DNA from: Escherichia coli
Lineage (GTDB): Bacteria; Pseudomonadota; Gammaproteobacteria; Enterobacterales; Enterobacteriaceae
Strand: one strand, 5' to 3'
Assembly (NCBI RefSeq): GCF_003334355.1
Contig: NZ_QOWP01000066.1
DNA length: 6,335 nt
Of the stretch, positions 1 to 6,335 are shown in pieces. A program made the position numbers and the translations under genes. Position 1 is the first letter of the stretch, and each line of letters starts with the position of its first letter. The notes below the pieces were generated by a model. It did no database searches, was not told the DNA's origin, and was given only the letters and a program-made list of their open reading frames with translations.

Positions 1-80
1 ATGCTTCCATCGGAAACGATGATCTGGCAGCCTGAGTTCACAGATAAAACACTCTCCAGGAAACCCGGGGCGGTTCACAA
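1..80. repeat. Left copy of perfect 80-bp terminal inverted repeat
   Basis: Positions 1-80 are the exact reverse complement of 6256-6335 (80/80). Identity breaks at position 81 versus 6255. Contains GTTCACA twice (36-42, 73-79) and the 12-mer TAAAACACTCTC (45-56). Confidence 0.97.
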
Positions 81-1200
81 TTATGCGGTTATATCGCTTA
101 CCTGCGGCCTCAATGAATTTTTGCTGCCCTTTAGTAGCAGACTCATAAAGCTGTTTATCTGAAATGCCTCCCAGACCATCGTTATATGTTCTGACCAGAT
201 TTTCCCGAGCCTGTTGTTGATTCAGCCTGTTCGTACCCGTTCCAAAAAAAGGAATTTTTTCGCCTGTTTTCTGGGCCAGACTCTGCACAGTGTTTTTATC
301 TTTCAGTACGTCACTGGTCATTAACGGTAGGTTTCTTTCCGATGCAAAATCAACAGCGGCTTTCGCTTCCGGTGCCATATCACCGCGAACGGCCCTCGAA
401 ACGGCACTCACTGTATTCTCCAGACCCTTACCAATGCCGCCAATGCCAGCAGAGATTACCGTTTGTAACGGATCAATATCTTCTCCACCAGCGAGGCTGG
501 TGGCTCCCTGTAGTGCTAAATCTGTAGCTGCTGATTTCCCTATGGCCCCCAGCACCGTTCCGGCCCTGCCCGCTGGTGTAAACGCCAGCGCATTAGCCAG
601 AAACGATGCCACGTCTTGCGGTGATAAACCCGGCTTGTTCAGAGCATAATCACCGGATGGTAGGGAAACGATAGTGTTACCCTTCTCATCCTGCCTTAAT
701 TTCGCTCCCATGCTCTGAAGAATCTTTTCCTGAGATGCGTCAGAGCCGAAAAGTTGAGACCATCGAGCTTTTAGAGCATCCATGCTGAGTGAGGTTAACT
801 CTGGGGCAAGGTCGACATTTTGCAGTCTCTCCATCTCTGGAGTCATTCGGCTTTCGCCTGTTATAGCATCGCGCATCGCAGCCCCAAGACTGGCTCCCTG
901 TTCTGCTGAACGTTCAAGCCCCTCTCTTTGCTGAGTCGCTAACTTTGCATACCCTGACGCAAGAGAATTATCAGATGATGTATGTTGAATATTTTGAGTT
1001 GCTGATTGGGCTCGGTCTATTTCATTCGTTGATGGTAGTGGATAGGCAGCATAAAAAGCCTGCTTAGCCTGCTCTACACTTTCTCCGGCTTGCGGGGCAA
1101 CGACTTCGTTGAAGTATTGCTCCTGAGCCTGCGCTTTTTGTTCTGGTGCTAACGCCTGATACTGTGGAGAGGCGATAACATCTTTCCATGCTTTAGCCAT
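1..1200 (-). CDS. Hypothetical protein, third gene of minus-strand operon; 400 codons in window, 3' end beyond window start (partial)
   Basis: ATG at 1200..1198 overlaps the TAA stop of the upstream gene by 1 nt (TAATG), implying translational coupling. SD-like GGGGTG lies 5-6 nt upstream. Hand translation of all 400 codons down to position 1 shows no stop (MAKAWKDVIASPQYQALAPEQKAQAQEQYF ... GKRYNRIIVNRPGFPGECFICELRLPDHRFRWKH). Ala/Gly/Gln/Ser-rich with no catalytic motif recognised. Absent from the ORF track, presumably because it has no in-window stop. Confidence 0.8.
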   Translation of the reverse strand, partial: MAKAWKDVIASPQYQALAPEQKAQAQEQYFNEVVAPQAGESVEQAKQAFYAAYPLPSTNEIDRAQSATQNIQHTSSDNSLASGYAKLATQQREGLERSAEQGASLGAAMRDAITGESRMTPEMERLQNVDLAPELTSLSMDALKARWSQLFGSDASQEKILQSMGAKLRQDEKGNTIVSLPSGDYALNKPGLSPQDVASFLANALAFTPAGRAGTVLGAIGKSAATDLALQGATSLAGGEDIDPLQTVISAGIGGIGKGLENTVSAVSRAVRGDMAPEAKAAVDFASERNLPLMTSDVLKDKNTVQSLAQKTGEKIPFFGTGTNRLNQQQARENLVRTYNDGLGGISDKQLYESATKGQQKFIEAAGKRYNRIIVNRPGFPGECFICELRLPDHRFRWKH

Positions 1201-2666
1201 TAATCACCCCATAGTGAAGAAAAGTTACTGCTGGCTGCTGGCTGTGATACCTGCTCAGATTGCGGCAATGTCTGCGACGAAGAAGAAGTTCCTCTGTCAA
1301 CTGCTGAAATAACCCGCAAAGCATCATAAGCTCGACCAGAAGCAGCTTTCAGCGAATTGAACTGGTTTTCCATCTTCCGGCGCTTGGTATCAATGGTTTT
1401 TGTGGAATCACCAGGCTGAGGGAAATACATTTGATAATATTTTGACATTTCAGCAGGTACGATAGCTGCCCCTGTTTCCTGACGGAGTATTGCCATTATT
1501 GCGTCATTAGCATTAACAACGTATTGCTGCTCTGTTGGGCTGAGCGTTAAGTTAGCCAGCGTCCCATTACCCAAAGCATTATTAATGATCGCCACTCGCT
1601 GTGGGCTAATCTGGCCTTTCAGTGTATCCATTGAATCAAGAGCATCCCTAACTCTGTATGCAAATCCAGCAGCTTTTTTAGCCCCTTCTGGCGACTTTTC
1701 CATGATCTTTTGAGCTGTTGGCAAAGCTATTAGACGAAACCCATCTCCAGATATTGGCTGGTTTAGTTTTCCCTGCTCTTCACTTCCGTCTGTGTAGTAT
1801 TTTGTGACAGTGCCATCATCGTTTTCCCTAACACTCATTAATTTTTTGGCGTTTGTATTAATTCCAGCCGCTGCCGCAAATGCCGCCGCCCCCTCTGGAT
1901 CCGCCTTTAACATTTGAGCGTACTGATTGTAATTCTGCATTGCTGCTGTTGGTGCATATGCTGACGTTAACGCATTTGCTCGGCTAATATCCTGCCCTCT
2001 CGCCTGAAGTGCTTCGCCAGCCTGATTGCTGCGGATTGTCTCTGCCAACTCGCCGCGCTCAATATCCCGACCTTCCATTTGATCTTTGATATCGAAATAC
2101 TTCTCATGACCGAGAGAAAACAGCGCCAGATTACCTGCGAAATGCTGGAAGCCCTGCGGGTCATTAACCTGCATTTCAGCAATAGTTTCTGGAGGGATAC
2201 CTAAACGACGCATCTCCTGCTCATTATCCATCATGAACCTGCCAAATGCGCCCGGACCAAGCGATGAGGCTACCTGTGCTTTGAGCGCCAGATTGCCATA
2301 ATCATCCCTTTGAGCATCATCGACATAACTCATCCCTTTACGGACTTCCTCAAACTCTTCTGGGAATGCTGTAATAAGATTACGCATCTGCTCCCTGTCG
2401 CCGGACGCATAAGCATCTGCATAACCTTTCTGGAATGCCGCTTTACGCTCCTGCTGTTGCTGCTGCTTATAAATATCAGCAACTCCAGCCAGACCACGTA
2501 ACGCGGTCAGACCAACGTTATTTGCACCTGAGCGAGCCAGTTCATTGTTTTCGCGGATCAGACCAAGCGTTGCGTTAATGTCGCTTGCCTTTGGCGCATT
2601 CTCGTTTTGCGTACCGATGCCAGCCAGAAAACCACCAGAATTAATACCCTGTTGCCACGTAGCCAT
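1200..2666 (-). CDS. Hypothetical low-complexity protein (488 aa from ATG), second gene of operon
   Basis: The ORF track gives 1200..2678 (492 aa) starting at a GTG that overlaps the upstream small ORF. I prefer the ATG at 2666..2664 (MATWQQGINSGG...), 4 nt after the TAA of the 57-aa ORF. Stop TAA at 1202..1200. Contains a QQQQQ run and Ala/Gln-rich segments. No Walker, HNH, integrase or nuclease motifs seen by eye. Confidence 0.85.
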   Translation of the reverse strand: MATWQQGINSGGFLAGIGTQNENAPKASDINATLGLIRENNELARSGANNVGLTALRGLAGVADIYKQQQQQERKAAFQKGYADAYASGDREQMRNLITAFPEEFEEVRKGMSYVDDAQRDDYGNLALKAQVASSLGPGAFGRFMMDNEQEMRRLGIPPETIAEMQVNDPQGFQHFAGNLALFSLGHEKYFDIKDQMEGRDIERGELAETIRSNQAGEALQARGQDISRANALTSAYAPTAAMQNYNQYAQMLKADPEGAAAFAAAAGINTNAKKLMSVRENDDGTVTKYYTDGSEEQGKLNQPISGDGFRLIALPTAQKIMEKSPEGAKKAAGFAYRVRDALDSMDTLKGQISPQRVAIINNALGNGTLANLTLSPTEQQYVVNANDAIMAILRQETGAAIVPAEMSKYYQMYFPQPGDSTKTIDTKRRKMENQFNSLKAASGRAYDALRVISAVDRGTSSSSQTLPQSEQVSQPAASSNFSSLWGD

Positions 2667-2670
2667 TGAT

Positions 2671-2844
2671 TTACCCACGTCCAGTTAAAGTGTAAGCCAG
2701 CGCCTTATCCATTAATCCCCGAGCAATTTCGTGGATCGTTGGCGCAACTCCTACCTCTGATTTTTTACGCTGCTCCTCCTGAATTTTCTTTATCGCTTCC
2801 ATTTGCTTCTCACTTATCAATACTGGCTTTACTGAAATAGCCAT
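2671..2844 (-). CDS. Small 57-aa protein, possible ribbon-helix-helix-like DNA-binding regulator (inference)
   Basis: ATG at 2844..2842 preceded by a strong SD (AAGGGGG, 4 nt spacer); stop TAA at 2673..2671. Translation MAISVKPVLISEKQMEAIKKIQEEQRKKSEVGVAPTIHEIARGLMDKALAYTLTGRG has a short N-terminal beta-like segment (KPVLIS) followed by two predicted helices, as in Arc/Mnt/CopG-type folds. Too short for the ORF track. Confidence 0.55.
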   Translation of the reverse strand: MAISVKPVLISEKQMEAIKKIQEEQRKKSEVGVAPTIHEIARGLMDKALAYTLTGRG

Positions 2845-2877
2845 AACGCCCCCTTAGAACTGTATAAAACAACAGTT

Positions 2878-2905
2878 ATTATAGTTTCACAAATCGCAAT
2901 ATTAA
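2878..2905 (-). promoter_or_regulatory. Candidate sigma70 promoter for the three-gene operon
   Basis: On the minus strand a perfect -10 TATAAT (plus-strand 2878-2883), a 16-bp spacer and a -35-like TTAATA (2900-2905, 4/6 match). The predicted start is about 25 nt upstream of the 57-aa ORF ATG. Confidence 0.4.
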
Positions 2906-2918
2906 TCATCGCAATTGC
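2893..2918. promoter_or_regulatory. Operator-like repeats overlapping the -35 region
   Basis: Direct repeat ATCGCAAT at 2893-2900 and 2908-2915 flanking the palindrome ATTAAT, plus the 8-bp perfect palindrome GCAATTGC at 2911-2918. Confidence 0.35.
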
Positions 2919-2939
2919 AAAATATGAAACAAATAGCAC

Positions 2940-2972
2940 AAAAAAATGCCACCGCTCAGTAGCTGGTGGCAT
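2940..2972 (-). terminator. Rho-independent terminator between the primase unit and the downstream operon
   Basis: Minus-strand RNA reads AUGCCACC-A-GCU-ACUG-AGC-GGUGGCAU followed by UUUUUU: an 11-bp GC-rich stem with one bulge and a 4-nt loop, then a 6-U tract. Lies downstream of the primase gene and iterons, and upstream of the operon promoter. Confidence 0.7.
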
Positions 2973-3166
2973 CGTTCTGTATGTCAGGTTTTGACAGGTT
3001 TTTTATGGACTCTAAAAACTATATTTATGGTGTCGCATTACTCTTCACGGCAGGCGCTTTCCAGTTCTGCCCTTGCTTCTGGCTCCATTGGTAATTTGAT
3101 TCGCGATCAGCTATGCGGATGGTTTGCTGAACAGGCATAACAACTTCTCAAAGGCTGTTTTTTGAA

Positions 3167-3183
3167 CTACGAAAATTTCGTAG
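3167..3183. promoter_or_regulatory. Palindrome CTACGAAA-A-TTTCGTAG, putative protein-binding site
   Basis: Perfect 8-bp inverted repeat with a 1-bp centre. Shares the TACGAAA/TTTCGTA half-site with the palindrome at 3222-3242. Confidence 0.35.
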
Positions 3184-3221
3184 TGCTCACTTTCAAAAAC
3201 GTCACGCCCTTGTACACAGGA

Positions 3222-3242
3222 TTTTACGAAAGTCTCGTAAAA
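3222..3242. promoter_or_regulatory. Palindrome TTTTACGA-AAGTC-TCGTAAAA, putative protein-binding site
   Basis: Perfect 8-bp inverted repeat with a 5-bp spacer. Overlaps the 12-mer TAAAACACTCTC (3238-3249), which also occurs in the terminal inverted repeat. Confidence 0.35.
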
Positions 3243-3291
3243 CACTCTCTGATGCCAGCCAGGTGTTGTGCGCATCAATTCAGTCACATTG

Positions 3292-3405
3292 TGTTGGTTC
3301 AAAATACCGTGTTGTTGGTTCAGTGTTGGTTCAATAAAAAGAATAAAATCCTTATAAAACAATACTCTTTACAAATTGAACCAACTGAACCAACTGAACC
3401 AACAC
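3292..3405. repeat. Iteron cluster, putative replication origin or cis-replication region
   Basis: TGTTGGTTCA at 3292-3301, 3313-3322 and 3324-3333 (21- and 11-bp phasing). A 43-bp AT-rich spacer (3334-3376). TGAACCAAC at 3377-3385, 3386-3394 and 3395-3403 in inverted orientation; the 11-mer GTGTTGGTTCA is perfectly inverted at 3395-3405. Starts 24 bp after the primase-helicase stop. Confidence 0.6.
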
Positions 3406-3428
3406 CTTTTCTACGCACATGAAGAAGC

Positions 3429-6185
3429 TCATTCTTCAGATGAGTTGTAATCTCCTGGCTGGTAATTGAGTACATAAACGTTTATTTGTCGTCCCTGAAT
3501 ACGTGGTGATTTTCTTTGGTATCCACGACCGCTGTTTGGTGGGGTTAGCATCCCGGCTTTTTTCAACACTTCAGCAAACTGTTTTGCGTTGAAACCACAT
3601 GCGATCTCCTTTTCAAATGTGGCCGGGAATGTGTAGAAAATCATTGGGCTTTCGTCATGTTCTCCACGCTGACGGTATCCGGCTAAATCTTTGATTGGCA
3701 AATCTGCCGGGCTGTATGGAAATGGTGCAAAACGGCTAAGCCCATAGGCATTAAGAAATGCCTCCGTTTGTTCAATAATCTGCTGATGTTCTTTGTTACC
3801 TGTGCCGAACTCGCGCAACCATGCGTTATAGCTGTGCTGTATCGCATCACGGCATGTCTGAGCATCCCAGCCTGTTACAACCTCGCCTAACAGCAATGCG
3901 GCCTCCAGAATGGCAAATCGCGCGGCTACACGGTGAACCTGCTCACCATAATCGGATGGAATCAGGCTTCTCCATCTGCTTTCGCAGTCACGAACAGTTT
4001 TAATAGCCTGTTGCTGGTGGTCTGCCAGCCATTTAATCCACTCACGCCCGGCTGCGCCGTGGTGATGCTGGTAAGCGTCTTTCAGTGCGTCTGCGTGCTG
4101 TTTTCCGTTCTGGTAATCGTGAAAGAGTACTGCTTTACTCAACGGAATATTCAGCAGTCGCACCAGTTGCCCGGCTTTGGTTTTTCGCCCGGAAGTAGCG
4201 ATAAATGTTTCTAAATCCATTTCTCCAGTGCTGATTGCCACTGTACGCCAGCGTTTTAGATCCCGGTTTCCACCATCTTTAGCGCCTTGCAGTTTCCCTA
4301 CACCGTTAAATAACGCATAGGCAGACTGTGAAACACTGACAGGATCAGCGCCCTGACCAACTTCATCAAGCGGCATTAGTCCGTCATTGTGGGCGGCGGC
4401 TTCATTTGCCAGCCCCAGCGCGGTTCCGTACCACGTCAGCCGCAGTAAATCAGGGTTGCCGTATAAGCTGCTCGCCACGTTTGCCGTGGTGGTCTTACCT
4501 GCGCTCGACTGCTCATAGAAATGAATGCCGAACCCGTCAGCGCCCACCAGCCCAATCAATGGCGCTGCCAGTGCTGCGCCGATCCCGGTCATCATTGAAT
4601 AGTTACCAAAGGCCAGACGCGCCACGTTATCACGCCAGCTTTTCGCGCTCCCTGAGACGGTATATCCGGCTGCGGCTGAGCTTCTCCCGCTGAACAGCAC
4701 AGGATTTTCAGGTGTTCCGATGATTTCCCCATCAGGCATGATGTACGCTCCGCATTGCCAGCCAGTGGCATGAGCAACACGCCACAATTCACGAGAGCCA
4801 CTGCGTTGTAGCCAGTCTGCCAGTATTGCTCTGAGGCTGCTTTTGGTCGTGACATTTACCCCACCAGCTTTAAGTGTGCGCCATCCTTCACGTTCACCAA
4901 TATCAGCCAGTGGAATGGCAGCGGTTGTCGGCGTTTCAGAACCAAACGACAGCCAGCGAAGAATGAGATACTGGTCTTTATCGTCTCTGCCAGTACCGAT
5001 AACGCTTAACGGAGAACATAACCAGCTTTCGTTATTGATGATTTCTCCACTCTGGCTGTCAGCTCTCGGAGATACCCAATAAATACCATCCTCGCGGCTT
5101 TCTATTCTTGGTTTCAGTGGGTCGGTATCCATAACCTTAAAATCGCTTCCCTCAATGGTCTGTGGCTGCTGTTTCACGCCATTACCCTGTGGTTGGTACA
5201 TTGACTTATTGAACGCTTCTGTGGCGCATTTAATGCCGTGTTTTTGGTGGTAATCATTCCAGTCTGCTTTGTGATCTGTCGGGGGTAATGCCACCCATCC
5301 AGAAACAGATAAAGCTGCTTTTTCTGCTGCTATTCTCCCCGTGTTTTGTCTTCCTTCGCTGTGGTCGTTATCCGCAGCAATGATGATTTGTGCTGAAGGA
5401 AATTTATCCCGCAGTACCTGGGCGACATATAACAGGTTCCCGGCATCAATCGCCGCCACTGTCAGCGATTCTGGACGAATTAAATGGGCAGATAATGCCG
5501 TTGCCAGCCCTTCTGCGATTAAGATGCTCTGTGTTGTTTCTGGTGCGTTTATGGCGTGATATGCCCCTCGCTTTGCTGAACCTGTCAGGAGTCTTTTTTC
5601 ACCATGTGAGGTAATAGTCTGTGCTGCTGTGACTGCGCCGGATTTATCCACCAGCGCCAGCAACAGAGATCCATCGGGCAACACTGGGAATGTAAAATCA
5701 CCTACCCCTTTCGCAACCAGATAATCAGATTTGCCGTTTACAGCCTTTCTGCGCATGTCATCAAACTGACGGGAAAACGTATCCCGTCTTTGTTGTTCGT
5801 CCTTCTCTGCCCTTTTCAGGCGCTCCTGTTCGCGTCGCTGGCGCTCGGTTTCCAGTTGTTCCCGTTTCTGGCTGGTGGCTTCTGGTGTTTCCGTTGTCCG
5901 GTAATCAATACCCAGAACATCAGCGGCAAGAAGCGCCGCCTCTGTTGTGTCGCAGTTATTTACGCGTTTAATTAAATCCAGCCCATCACCAGCGCCGCAC
6001 TGATTACAGATGAAGCTACCGCGCCCGTTGTCGTCGAACCGGAATCGATCTTTGCCCCCACATGCAGGGCAGGGAGCATGACGGCGAGGAGAGTCAGGGA
6101 CATTTATGTTCAGACAGCCCAGCACATGAGGCCAGTTGTTTTCAGACGCACTGATAACCTGACGGATAAGATCAATGTTTCGCAT
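3429..6185 (-). CDS. Primase-helicase, P4 alpha-like (zinc ribbon + TOPRIM + P-loop NTPase, 918 aa)
   Basis: ORF track 3429..6185. ATG preceded by SD ACGGGGG with a 5-nt spacer. Zinc-ribbon motif CPACGGKDRFRFDDNGRGSFICNQCG (aa 39-63, nt about 5997-6071). Charged linker ERQRREQERLKRAEKDEQQRRD. TOPRIM signatures IAEGLATA and IIIAADNDHSEG (aa about 220-300). Walker A-like SSAGKTT (aa 560-566, nt 4488-4508) and Walker B-like MPLDEVG. The architecture matches the P4 alpha and DUF927-type primase-helicases of satellites and integrative elements. Confidence 0.92.
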   Translation of the reverse strand: MRNIDLIRQVISASENNWPHVLGCLNINVPDSPRRHAPCPACGGKDRFRFDDNGRGSFICNQCGAGDGLDLIKRVNNCDTTEAALLAADVLGIDYRTTETPEATSQKREQLETERQRREQERLKRAEKDEQQRRDTFSRQFDDMRRKAVNGKSDYLVAKGVGDFTFPVLPDGSLLLALVDKSGAVTAAQTITSHGEKRLLTGSAKRGAYHAINAPETTQSILIAEGLATALSAHLIRPESLTVAAIDAGNLLYVAQVLRDKFPSAQIIIAADNDHSEGRQNTGRIAAEKAALSVSGWVALPPTDHKADWNDYHQKHGIKCATEAFNKSMYQPQGNGVKQQPQTIEGSDFKVMDTDPLKPRIESREDGIYWVSPRADSQSGEIINNESWLCSPLSVIGTGRDDKDQYLILRWLSFGSETPTTAAIPLADIGEREGWRTLKAGGVNVTTKSSLRAILADWLQRSGSRELWRVAHATGWQCGAYIMPDGEIIGTPENPVLFSGRSSAAAGYTVSGSAKSWRDNVARLAFGNYSMMTGIGAALAAPLIGLVGADGFGIHFYEQSSAGKTTTANVASSLYGNPDLLRLTWYGTALGLANEAAAHNDGLMPLDEVGQGADPVSVSQSAYALFNGVGKLQGAKDGGNRDLKRWRTVAISTGEMDLETFIATSGRKTKAGQLVRLLNIPLSKAVLFHDYQNGKQHADALKDAYQHHHGAAGREWIKWLADHQQQAIKTVRDCESRWRSLIPSDYGEQVHRVAARFAILEAALLLGEVVTGWDAQTCRDAIQHSYNAWLREFGTGNKEHQQIIEQTEAFLNAYGLSRFAPFPYSPADLPIKDLAGYRQRGEHDESPMIFYTFPATFEKEIACGFNAKQFAEVLKKAGMLTPPNSGRGYQRKSPRIQGRQINVYVLNYQPGDYNSSEE

Positions 6186-6197
6186 TCTGGCCCCCGT

Positions 6198-6335
6198 TTA
6201 GTGCGTCACTGGTGCTTCTGGGATGCCGTTTTCGTTTAGTTCGGCAATAAAGCTGTTGTGAACCGCCCCGGGTTTCCTGGAGAGTGTTTTATCTGTGAAC
6301 TCAGGCTGCCAGATCATCGTTTCCGATGGAAGCAT
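6198..6335 (-). CDS. Small ORF (45 aa) directly upstream of the primase-helicase; start may lie beyond the window
   Basis: ATG at 6335..6333 and TAA at 6200..6198, ending 12 nt before the primase ATG. Translation MLPSETMIWQPEFTDKTLSRKPGAVHNSFIAELNENGIPEAPVTH. The first 80 nt are the terminal inverted repeat. Operon-like spacing with the primase supports it, but it is short and without recognised motifs. Confidence 0.4.
   Translation of the reverse strand: MLPSETMIWQPEFTDKTLSRKPGAVHNSFIAELNENGIPEAPVTH
6256..6335. repeat. Right copy of perfect 80-bp terminal inverted repeat
   Basis: Exact reverse complement of 1-80. Confidence 0.97.

Follow-up and report, generated by a model that had tools for sequence, protein, structure and literature searches.

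Introduction

In PICIs, the origin of replication is the region immediately 3' of the replication gene (Fillol-Salom et al. 2018, PMC6092414), and opposed iteron sets around an A+T-rich region directly 3' of pri-rep are a published hallmark of PICI and SaPI origins (PMC6092414, PMC9371898). In SaPIs, rep is followed directly by six to twelve iterons, which are split equally between the two sides of an A+T-rich centre, in opposed orientations, and are read by the winged-helix domain of the C-terminal portion of Rep (PMC9371898). Among E. coli elements, origin function has been tested by a conditional-plasmid assay for EcCICFT073 (PMC6092414). Inspection of the EcCICFT073 origin sequence revealed TCTACC repeats in both orientations directly past the gene, unrelated to the iteron described below.

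EcCIMP1, the PICI of E. coli MP1, is mobilised by the P22-like phage Kapi1, and its induction and excision by a P22-like helper phage have been published (PMC11773190). The published description names a primase and no origin: the terms 'iteron' and 'origin of replication' are absent from that paper, as is 'ori' as a word (PMC11773190). The supplement of the 2018 PICI paper (Fillol-Salom et al.) likewise contains neither a thrW island nor iteron sequences given as text. Here we describe a repeat module that very likely represents a vegetative origin of EcCIMP1-type islands, and compare it with the PICI and SaPI origins, with phage P4, and with iteron plasmids.

An island segment of the EcCIMP1 type

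The DNA analysed is a stretch of 6,335 nucleotides from E. coli (hereafter "the window"), of which positions 78–6262 are 100% identical to a chromosomal island of E. coli ECamp52. This island is integrated at tRNA-Thr, adjoining proA, and its genes include an integrase, an AlpA-like regulator, antA, ash, a TOPRIM/DUF927 protein (here Pri-Rep, the product of pri-rep), P22-like DNA-ejection genes, and perC. The MP1 locus occupies the same tRNA-Thr/proA site, and its core proteins are the same as those of ECamp52 or nearly so: MP1 and ECamp52 share the accessions of the AlpA-like and PerC proteins, the integrase and Pri-Rep accessions are adjacent, and the intergenic region past pri-rep is 98% identical between the window and EcCIMP1. 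Both gene set and integration site thus match those of EcCIMP1, for which helper-dependent mobilisation is published (PMC11773190), and on this comparison the window is part of an EcCIMP1-type PICI at tRNA-Thr/proA.

The two ends of the window (1–77 and 6263–6335) are mutual reverse complements and match the terminal sequence of IS1203/the IS3 family, so that the 6.2-kb island segment is bracketed by two inverted IS copies in the source genome. Both the 701-aa DNA-transfer gene and the reading frame upstream of pri-rep are truncated by these copies.

Opposed iterons around an unstable spacer directly past pri-rep

An initial annotation of the window had described three iterons at 21- and 11-bp spacing, a 43-bp A+T-rich stretch, and three further iterons in inverted orientation, all of which are seen in the sequence (Table 1). 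The six exact copies of the 9-mer in the window all fall within 3293–3403, with none elsewhere in a scan of the whole 6.3 kb. When up to one mismatch is allowed, the window contains 10 matches compared to 1.5 expected, a count reached by none of 200 shuffles. The two triplets are asymmetric: the units of the gene-proximal one follow each other without gaps every 9 bp, and those of the distal one are spaced at 11/21 bp. A distance of 25 bp separates the nearest iteron from the stop codon of the 918-aa ORF. The spacer between the triplets is the least stable duplex of the 6.3-kb window at the 30-, 43-, and 60-bp scales (−44.8 kcal/mol vs. a window mean of −60.5, sd 4.1).

Table 1 Features in and around the candidate origin module (window coordinates)
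Feature	Position	Strand	Description
Gene-distal iterons (x3)	3293..3333	+	GTTGGTTCA beginning at 3293, 3314, and 3325 on the + strand, spacing 21 and 11 bp (repeat finder); opposite orientation to the proximal set; read as (T)GTTGGTTCA when 3292/3293, 3313/3314, and 3324/3325 are taken as starts
A+T-rich spacer, presumed DNA-unwinding element	3334..3376	.	43 bp, 84% A+T; contains TTGTTTTATAAGGATTTTATT (gene strand)
Gene-proximal iterons (x3)	3377..3403	-	GTTGGTTCA on the gene strand, TGAACCAAC on the + strand; contiguous 9-bp units at 3377, 3386, and 3395; stretch ends ...CAACAC at 3405
Non-iteron element	3411..3422	-	TCATGTGCGTAG (gene strand), between stop and first iteron; conserved across loci
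pri-rep gene	3429..6185	-	918 aa, predicted primase/helicase/initiator fusion; coordinates with stop codon
CTGGCTGGCA box	3253..3262	-	Gene strand, just past distal iterons; conserved across loci
Two palindromes TACGAAAnnnTCGTA	3168-3182 and 3225-3239	.	15 bp each, 57 bp apart (repeat finder)

The module shares with PICI and SaPI origins both its placement immediately 3' of pri-rep, found likewise in ~45 relatives, and its opposed iteron sets, with at least two iterons per side (here 3 + 3) around an A+T-rich region. We therefore consider it very likely that 3293–3403 represents one complete module of an EcCIMP1-type vegetative origin, with the 918-aa Pri-Rep as its cognate initiator. By analogy with the SaPI and EcCICFT073 origins, this module would be expected to act as an origin, at which the initiator binds, the DNA melts, and the helicase is loaded.

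A 10-bp indel, located between the first and the second spaced iteron, separates the window (3312–3313) from the MP1 locus (L072, 18414–18443). Because of this 10-bp insertion relative to the 11/21 form, the distal spacing in EcCIMP1 is 21/21, i.e., three 21-bp direct repeats. With either spacing, 21/21 or 11/21, the sites face approximately the same side of the helix.

The layout is conserved in register with the stop codon

A scan of species-representative genomes yielded 64 loci, including ~50 clear homologues (54–99% identity) across Enterobacterales, for which the 330–500 bp past each stop codon were extracted and compared. About 45 diverged loci from ~30 genera share the same layout in register with the stop codon, namely 2–7 contiguous repeats at ~+25 to +50 from the stop, a ~45-bp A+T-rich spacer, and then opposite repeats at ~+96, +107, and +128, with the 11/21 distal spacing kept in most relatives. 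This comparison supports the proposal, already made in the initial annotation, of a putative origin with a DNA-unwinding element. In two relatives (L044 and L058), no such repeats were found past the gene, and an SSB-like reading frame begins directly there.

The iteron itself differs by lineage, and every copy in a given locus, on either strand, has the same version. Most loci, including the window, have the TGAACCAAC iteron, while TGAGACAAC is found in six loci from Enterobacter, Kosakonia, Buttiauxella, Shimwellia, and others, TGGGATAAGT in L050, L052, L053, and L060, and TGAACCGAC in L020, L039, and L048. The remaining versions are AAACCGACC (L038), TAACCCGT (L015), TAACCCAC (L047), and TGGGCTAA (L043). 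In contrast to the iterons, several neighbouring motifs are constant whatever the iteron type: the motif past the stop (window 3411–3422), which reads TCACATGCGTAG or CTCACATGTGAG; the spacer motif TTGnTTTATAAGG (window 3345–3365), in which no convincing IHF or DnaA consensus was recognised by eye; and the motif CTGGCTGGCAG past the distal set (window 3253–3262). Since these spacer and flank motifs stay conserved independently of the iteron type, it is likely that other factors or signals act at the origin.

Individual loci display further variations. Seven contiguous proximal iterons are found opposite three distal ones in L051, and Yersinia pekkanenii (L033) has three separate iteron arrays within 7.5 kb. 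The ACTTATCCCA/TGGGATAAGT iteron of L050, L052, L053, and L060 resembles the DnaA-box core TTATCCACA. Finally, the 106.5-kb Klebsiella phage P12620-1, a large phage and possibly a phage-plasmid, encodes a 711-aa homologue without the primase part (L006, 2554–4990; 71% identical over residues 355–907), which is followed by eleven TGAACCAAC iterons in a two-module layout. Within E. coli, the candidate origin module was identified in 513 of 5426 complete genomes, i.e., roughly one in ten, at a median of two places per genome.

Pri-Rep combines a P4-like primase with a SaPI-Rep-like part

The 918-aa ORF includes three Pfam domains, Zn_Ribbon_Prim, Toprim_3, and DUF927. A match to SaPI Rep (8tch, E = 1e-11) covers residues 401–813, with a further match to the SCCmec helicase Cch. 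Alignment to P4 alpha is confined to residues 7–361 (33% identity over 359 aa, E = 1e-41), and the helicase and C-terminal parts of alpha correspond to the Pfam domains D5_N, DUF5906, and Pox_D5. Taken together, the Pfam, 8tch, and P4 alpha comparisons therefore identify Pri-Rep as a fusion of a P4-like primase with a helicase/initiator of the SaPI Rep type.

Phage P4 had been put forward as the model for this locus. This parallel holds for the primase part, which alone is homologous to alpha, but does not extend to the helicase/origin-binding part, for which Pri-Rep has DUF927 and a predicted SaPI-Rep-like winged helix in place of the alpha domains. The two systems have in common a primase-helicase-initiator fusion in an enterobacterial satellite, with homologous zinc-ribbon/Toprim primases, as well as an iteron-bearing cis site directly past the gene, in which the repeats point both ways, and a further iteron cluster kilobases away. 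They differ in that the P4 sites lie upstream and downstream of the replication operon, whereas both modules are downstream here, and in that the annotation of the EcCIMP1-type island includes no sid, psu, delta, or cos genes. The window also contains no copy of the P4 type 1 repeat TGTTCACC, consistent with the suggestion in the initial annotation of a specificity unlike that of P4. Judged from sequence, the locus is thus a SaPI/PICI-type Rep-origin module, with likeness to P4 alpha limited to the N-terminal primase; the earlier reading is essentially right, and the kind of system is already known.

Compared to the Rep-origin systems of SaPIs (SaPIbov1, SaPI1, and SaPI5) and EcCICFT073, the window iteron has a different sequence and is a 9-mer, vs. 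a 5-6-mer in SaPIs. The window system further adds the P4-alpha-like primase and, in E. coli, includes two modules with 7–8 kb of cargo between them. The published E. coli PICIs CFT073, RM13514, 042, and ATCC 25922 were considered as possible carriers of the same Pri-Rep type and rejected, as all carry other replicases with no detectable relation to the window protein, including the Pri-Rep of EcCICFT073 itself: those of CFT073, RM13514, and ATCC 25922 are each a 'DNA primase family protein', and that of 042 is a RepA-family helicase.

Iteron plasmids of the R6K/RK2/pPS10 class carry direct repeats of 17–22 bp to one side of the unwinding element, and their origins work with DnaA boxes and host DnaB/DnaC, the Rep protein including neither helicase nor primase. 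Both they and the window have repeated initiator-binding sites (predicted here) adjoining an A+T-rich unwinding region. However, the window units are 9 bp long, inverted, and found on both sides, and the predicted initiator would itself be a helicase-primase with DUF927 and Toprim domains, so that the system does not belong with the RepA/pi/TrfA class; no DnaA box was noted in the window module. For SCCmec Cch, an MCM-like helicase with DUF927, no cognate iteron origin has been described to our knowledge, and Cch carries no fused Toprim primase, unlike the window Pri-Rep.

A C-terminal patch covaries with the iteron

Sequence searches of the PDB with two profiles of the C-terminal domain returned nothing or one insignificant match. 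A first structure model (aa 690–918, based on 27 close homologues) was poor over the last 110 residues (pLDDT 40–55), and its Foldseek match to Cch was only suggestive; it was discarded in favour of a model from 56 diverse homologues. A search of residues 790–918 against 1.84 billion representatives identified 269 relatives, and in full-length relatives the match is found at the C-terminal end of 575–1100-aa proteins. The model from 56 sequences (pLDDT 88.5, pTM 0.81) comprises a helix, three strands, two helices (65–72 and 78–87), and a long beta-hairpin. The best structural match of this predicted winged-helix domain is the SaPI Rep initiator.

Across an alignment of 41 homologues and 918 columns, the only columns in which every TGAGACAAC-type protein has a common residue absent from all TGAACCAAC-type proteins are 891, 892, 893, and 896. 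Residues 891–896 correspond to model positions 102–107 and are predicted to lie within the beta-hairpin. With residue 890 included, this patch reads QRKSPRI in TGAACCAAC-type proteins and QGRV-RE, with P894 deleted, in TGAGACAAC-type proteins, which otherwise rank among the nearest to the window protein (97–99% identical in segments 551–650 and 741–800). The patch also differs with the other iterons: S893T is found in L020 (TGAACCGAC iteron), KRKALKR or KKKALRK in TAACCC-type proteins, and WQIRTPRLKH and WQIRMPRLRH in the TGGGATAAG and TGGGCTAA types, respectively, with T vs. M in the patch paired with GGGATAAG vs. GGGCTAA in the iteron.

By our own arithmetic, the chance of four such columns falling within six of 918 residues would be ~3e-7 if columns were independent, which is not fully the case because the patch is physically close to the iterons. 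Since only ~70–110 bp separate the two, some co-inheritance by linkage is expected. Residues from 896 to the stop show no segregation by iteron type, and these non-segregating residues between the patch and the stop argue against simple hitch-hiking, without excluding it. Overall, the way in which iteron changes track patch 891–896 supports the C-terminal domain as the probable iteron reader, as had been proposed from the window alone.

We propose the following mechanism for this system. A P22-like helper phage would induce the island, leading to its excision and to the production of Pri-Rep. The C-terminal winged helix would read the 9-bp TGAACCAAC via its basic beta-hairpin, with R891, K892, S893, and I896 setting specificity, and Pri-Rep would assemble on both oppositely oriented iteron sets. 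The 43-bp A+T-rich spacer between these sets would then melt, the DUF927 AAA+ helicase would self-load, like SaPI Rep, and the N-terminal zinc-ribbon/Toprim primase would prime for the host polymerase.

A probable origin is thus now located for EcCIMP1-type islands, and the standard plan of PICI origins would also apply to a replicase type outside those of the four E. coli PICIs compared above. The natural iteron variants, together with the six-residue patch, provide a ready test of origin reading by self-loading helicases, and these variants also bear on how co-resident islands avoid cross-talk.

A second inverted module, separated by cargo in E. coli

Across the 46-kb ECamp52 locus, the 9-mer is found in 12 copies vs. 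0.3 expected, with six at the window site, five beside perC (L001, 15742–15841), and one isolated chance copy. The second cluster is an inverted and slightly decayed copy of the first, has its own A+T-rich spacer, and lies 7.4 kb away. Similarly, EcCIMP1 has two clusters of six exact copies each (L072, 18393–18513 and 9853–9973), separated by 8.4 kb, and the remainder of the 28-kb locus contains none; the second module (9853–9973) adjoins perC. The cargo between the modules consists of P22 gp20-like and DNA-transfer/transglycosylase genes in ECamp52, and of a different set (DUF2824, an ejection protein, and a lytic transglycosylase) in MP1.

In many other genera, the two modules abut, forming an array of 10–12 iterons in ~290 bp that is followed by an SSB gene. 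The gap between modules is 0.4 kb in L038 and ~0.95 kb in L051, with a small gene in between; for relatives with only six iterons, the loci cover 3 kb past the gene. In the compact relatives, the CTGGCTGGCA box is found at the centre of the ~290-bp putative origin, and the similarity of the window to these compact origins stops after this box. The window would therefore hold one half of a two-module origin, the centre of which took up cargo in E. coli.

The second inverted module is probably either a second origin or a cis-acting partner. More tentatively, and with considerable doubt, these observations could reflect a bipartite origin made of two inverted complete modules, which would form a compact imperfect palindrome of ~290 bp in other genera and be split by cargo in E. 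coli, with wing residues 891–896 as the recognition code. If this were the case, firing or pairing of both modules could selectively amplify or invert the cargo, or form a loop like P4 ori-crr, and the CTGGCTGGCA box at the origin centre would represent a preferred site of cargo capture. The split arrangement around swappable ejection genes may also bear on the gain of helper-mimicking cargo by satellites.

The existence of two modules also makes a crr-like role possible for the module studied here, which would then be a cis-acting auxiliary site, with initiation at the perC-side module or elsewhere and Pri-Rep looping the DNA. We view this as improbable. In intact islands the two modules are indeed inverted and kilobases apart, and P4 crr is annotated directly downstream of alpha, with type 1 repeats in both orientations, separate from ori. 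However, each module alone has the complete layout of a SaPI-type origin, with opposed iterons around an A+T-rich spacer, and the helicase/origin-binding part of Pri-Rep is SaPI-Rep-like, a system for which no second site is reported (PMC9371898). Because the modules abut within ~290 bp in many genera, they appear to be one unit rather than two kinds of site.

Other possible roles of the repeats

We give little credence to the repeats serving another function instead, whether in packaging by the helper terminase (a pac-like site), in partition, or in control of the ejection operon, as an operator bound by Pri-Rep or another island protein. Repeat sets around a bendable A+T-rich stretch are also found in some pac sites, e.g., that of P1, which would fit a pac-like role. 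The site is located between pri-rep and the next operon, to which promoter-like (2878–2905) and terminator-like (2948–2963) sites belong, and EcCIMP1 has no terminase gene (PMC11773190). Against such functions, the repeat covaries with the Pri-Rep C-terminal domain and with no helper function, and the module follows the homologous gene despite differing downstream genes (SSB, PHROG families without known role, or regulators). The same iterons are also found in the 106-kb Klebsiella phage P12620-1, in a context of its own. An autoregulatory, packaging, or operator role could nonetheless exist alongside origin function.

It is very unlikely that the inverted repeats act as a hairpin or cruciform, e.g., by stabilising the 3' end of the pri-rep transcript or by terminating it. 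The predicted RNA fold of the region is stable (−50.2 kcal/mol, z = −7.3 vs. shuffles), and an Rfam scan of 2600–3600 yielded only generic plant miRNA hairpin models, far below threshold, reflecting the inverted repeat. However, the site has no U-tract and no terminator call, the spacing of the two arms is unequal (9/9 vs. 11/21), triplicated direct repeats would be superfluous, and covariation with a protein patch would be unexpected for a pure RNA element. In addition, a hairpin is not preserved, since arm copy numbers differ in relatives (7 vs. 3 in L051; 2 vs. 3 or 4 in others).

Finally, a chance repeat or a coding sequence, the latter named in the initial annotation as what would overturn the origin reading, can be confidently rejected despite overlapping ORFs of 51, 83, and 86 aa: the shuffles and the number of exact copies in both the 46-kb and 28-kb loci (12 vs. 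0.3 expected) argue against chance, the 10-bp indel relative to EcCIMP1 falls within and frameshifts every overlapping ORF, no CDS is annotated at the site (RefSeq; MP1 locus), and the repeats of the two strands vary in concert from lineage to lineage.

Ejection-type cargo and palindromes next to the module

The island, although a satellite, encodes homologues of the P22 gp20-type 'released on infection' protein and of DNA-transfer/transglycosylase proteins (PHROG 917, 770, and 29864). These ejection-type genes are located at 1200–2678 (−) and 78–1200 (−) in the window, and at 19018–22589 in the ECamp52 locus (L001). A PADLOC search of the cargo proteins gave no defence-system match. For EcCIMP1, a packaging role has been proposed for the ejection-type proteins (PMC11773190).

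The two palindromes TACGAAAnnnTCGTA are flanked by the origin module on one side and by the promoter region of the downstream ejection-gene operon on the other. They are the sole two such sites in the 46-kb intact locus, compared to 0.14 expected, and are identical in EcCIMP1. These palindromes may represent a putative operator for some dimeric regulator.
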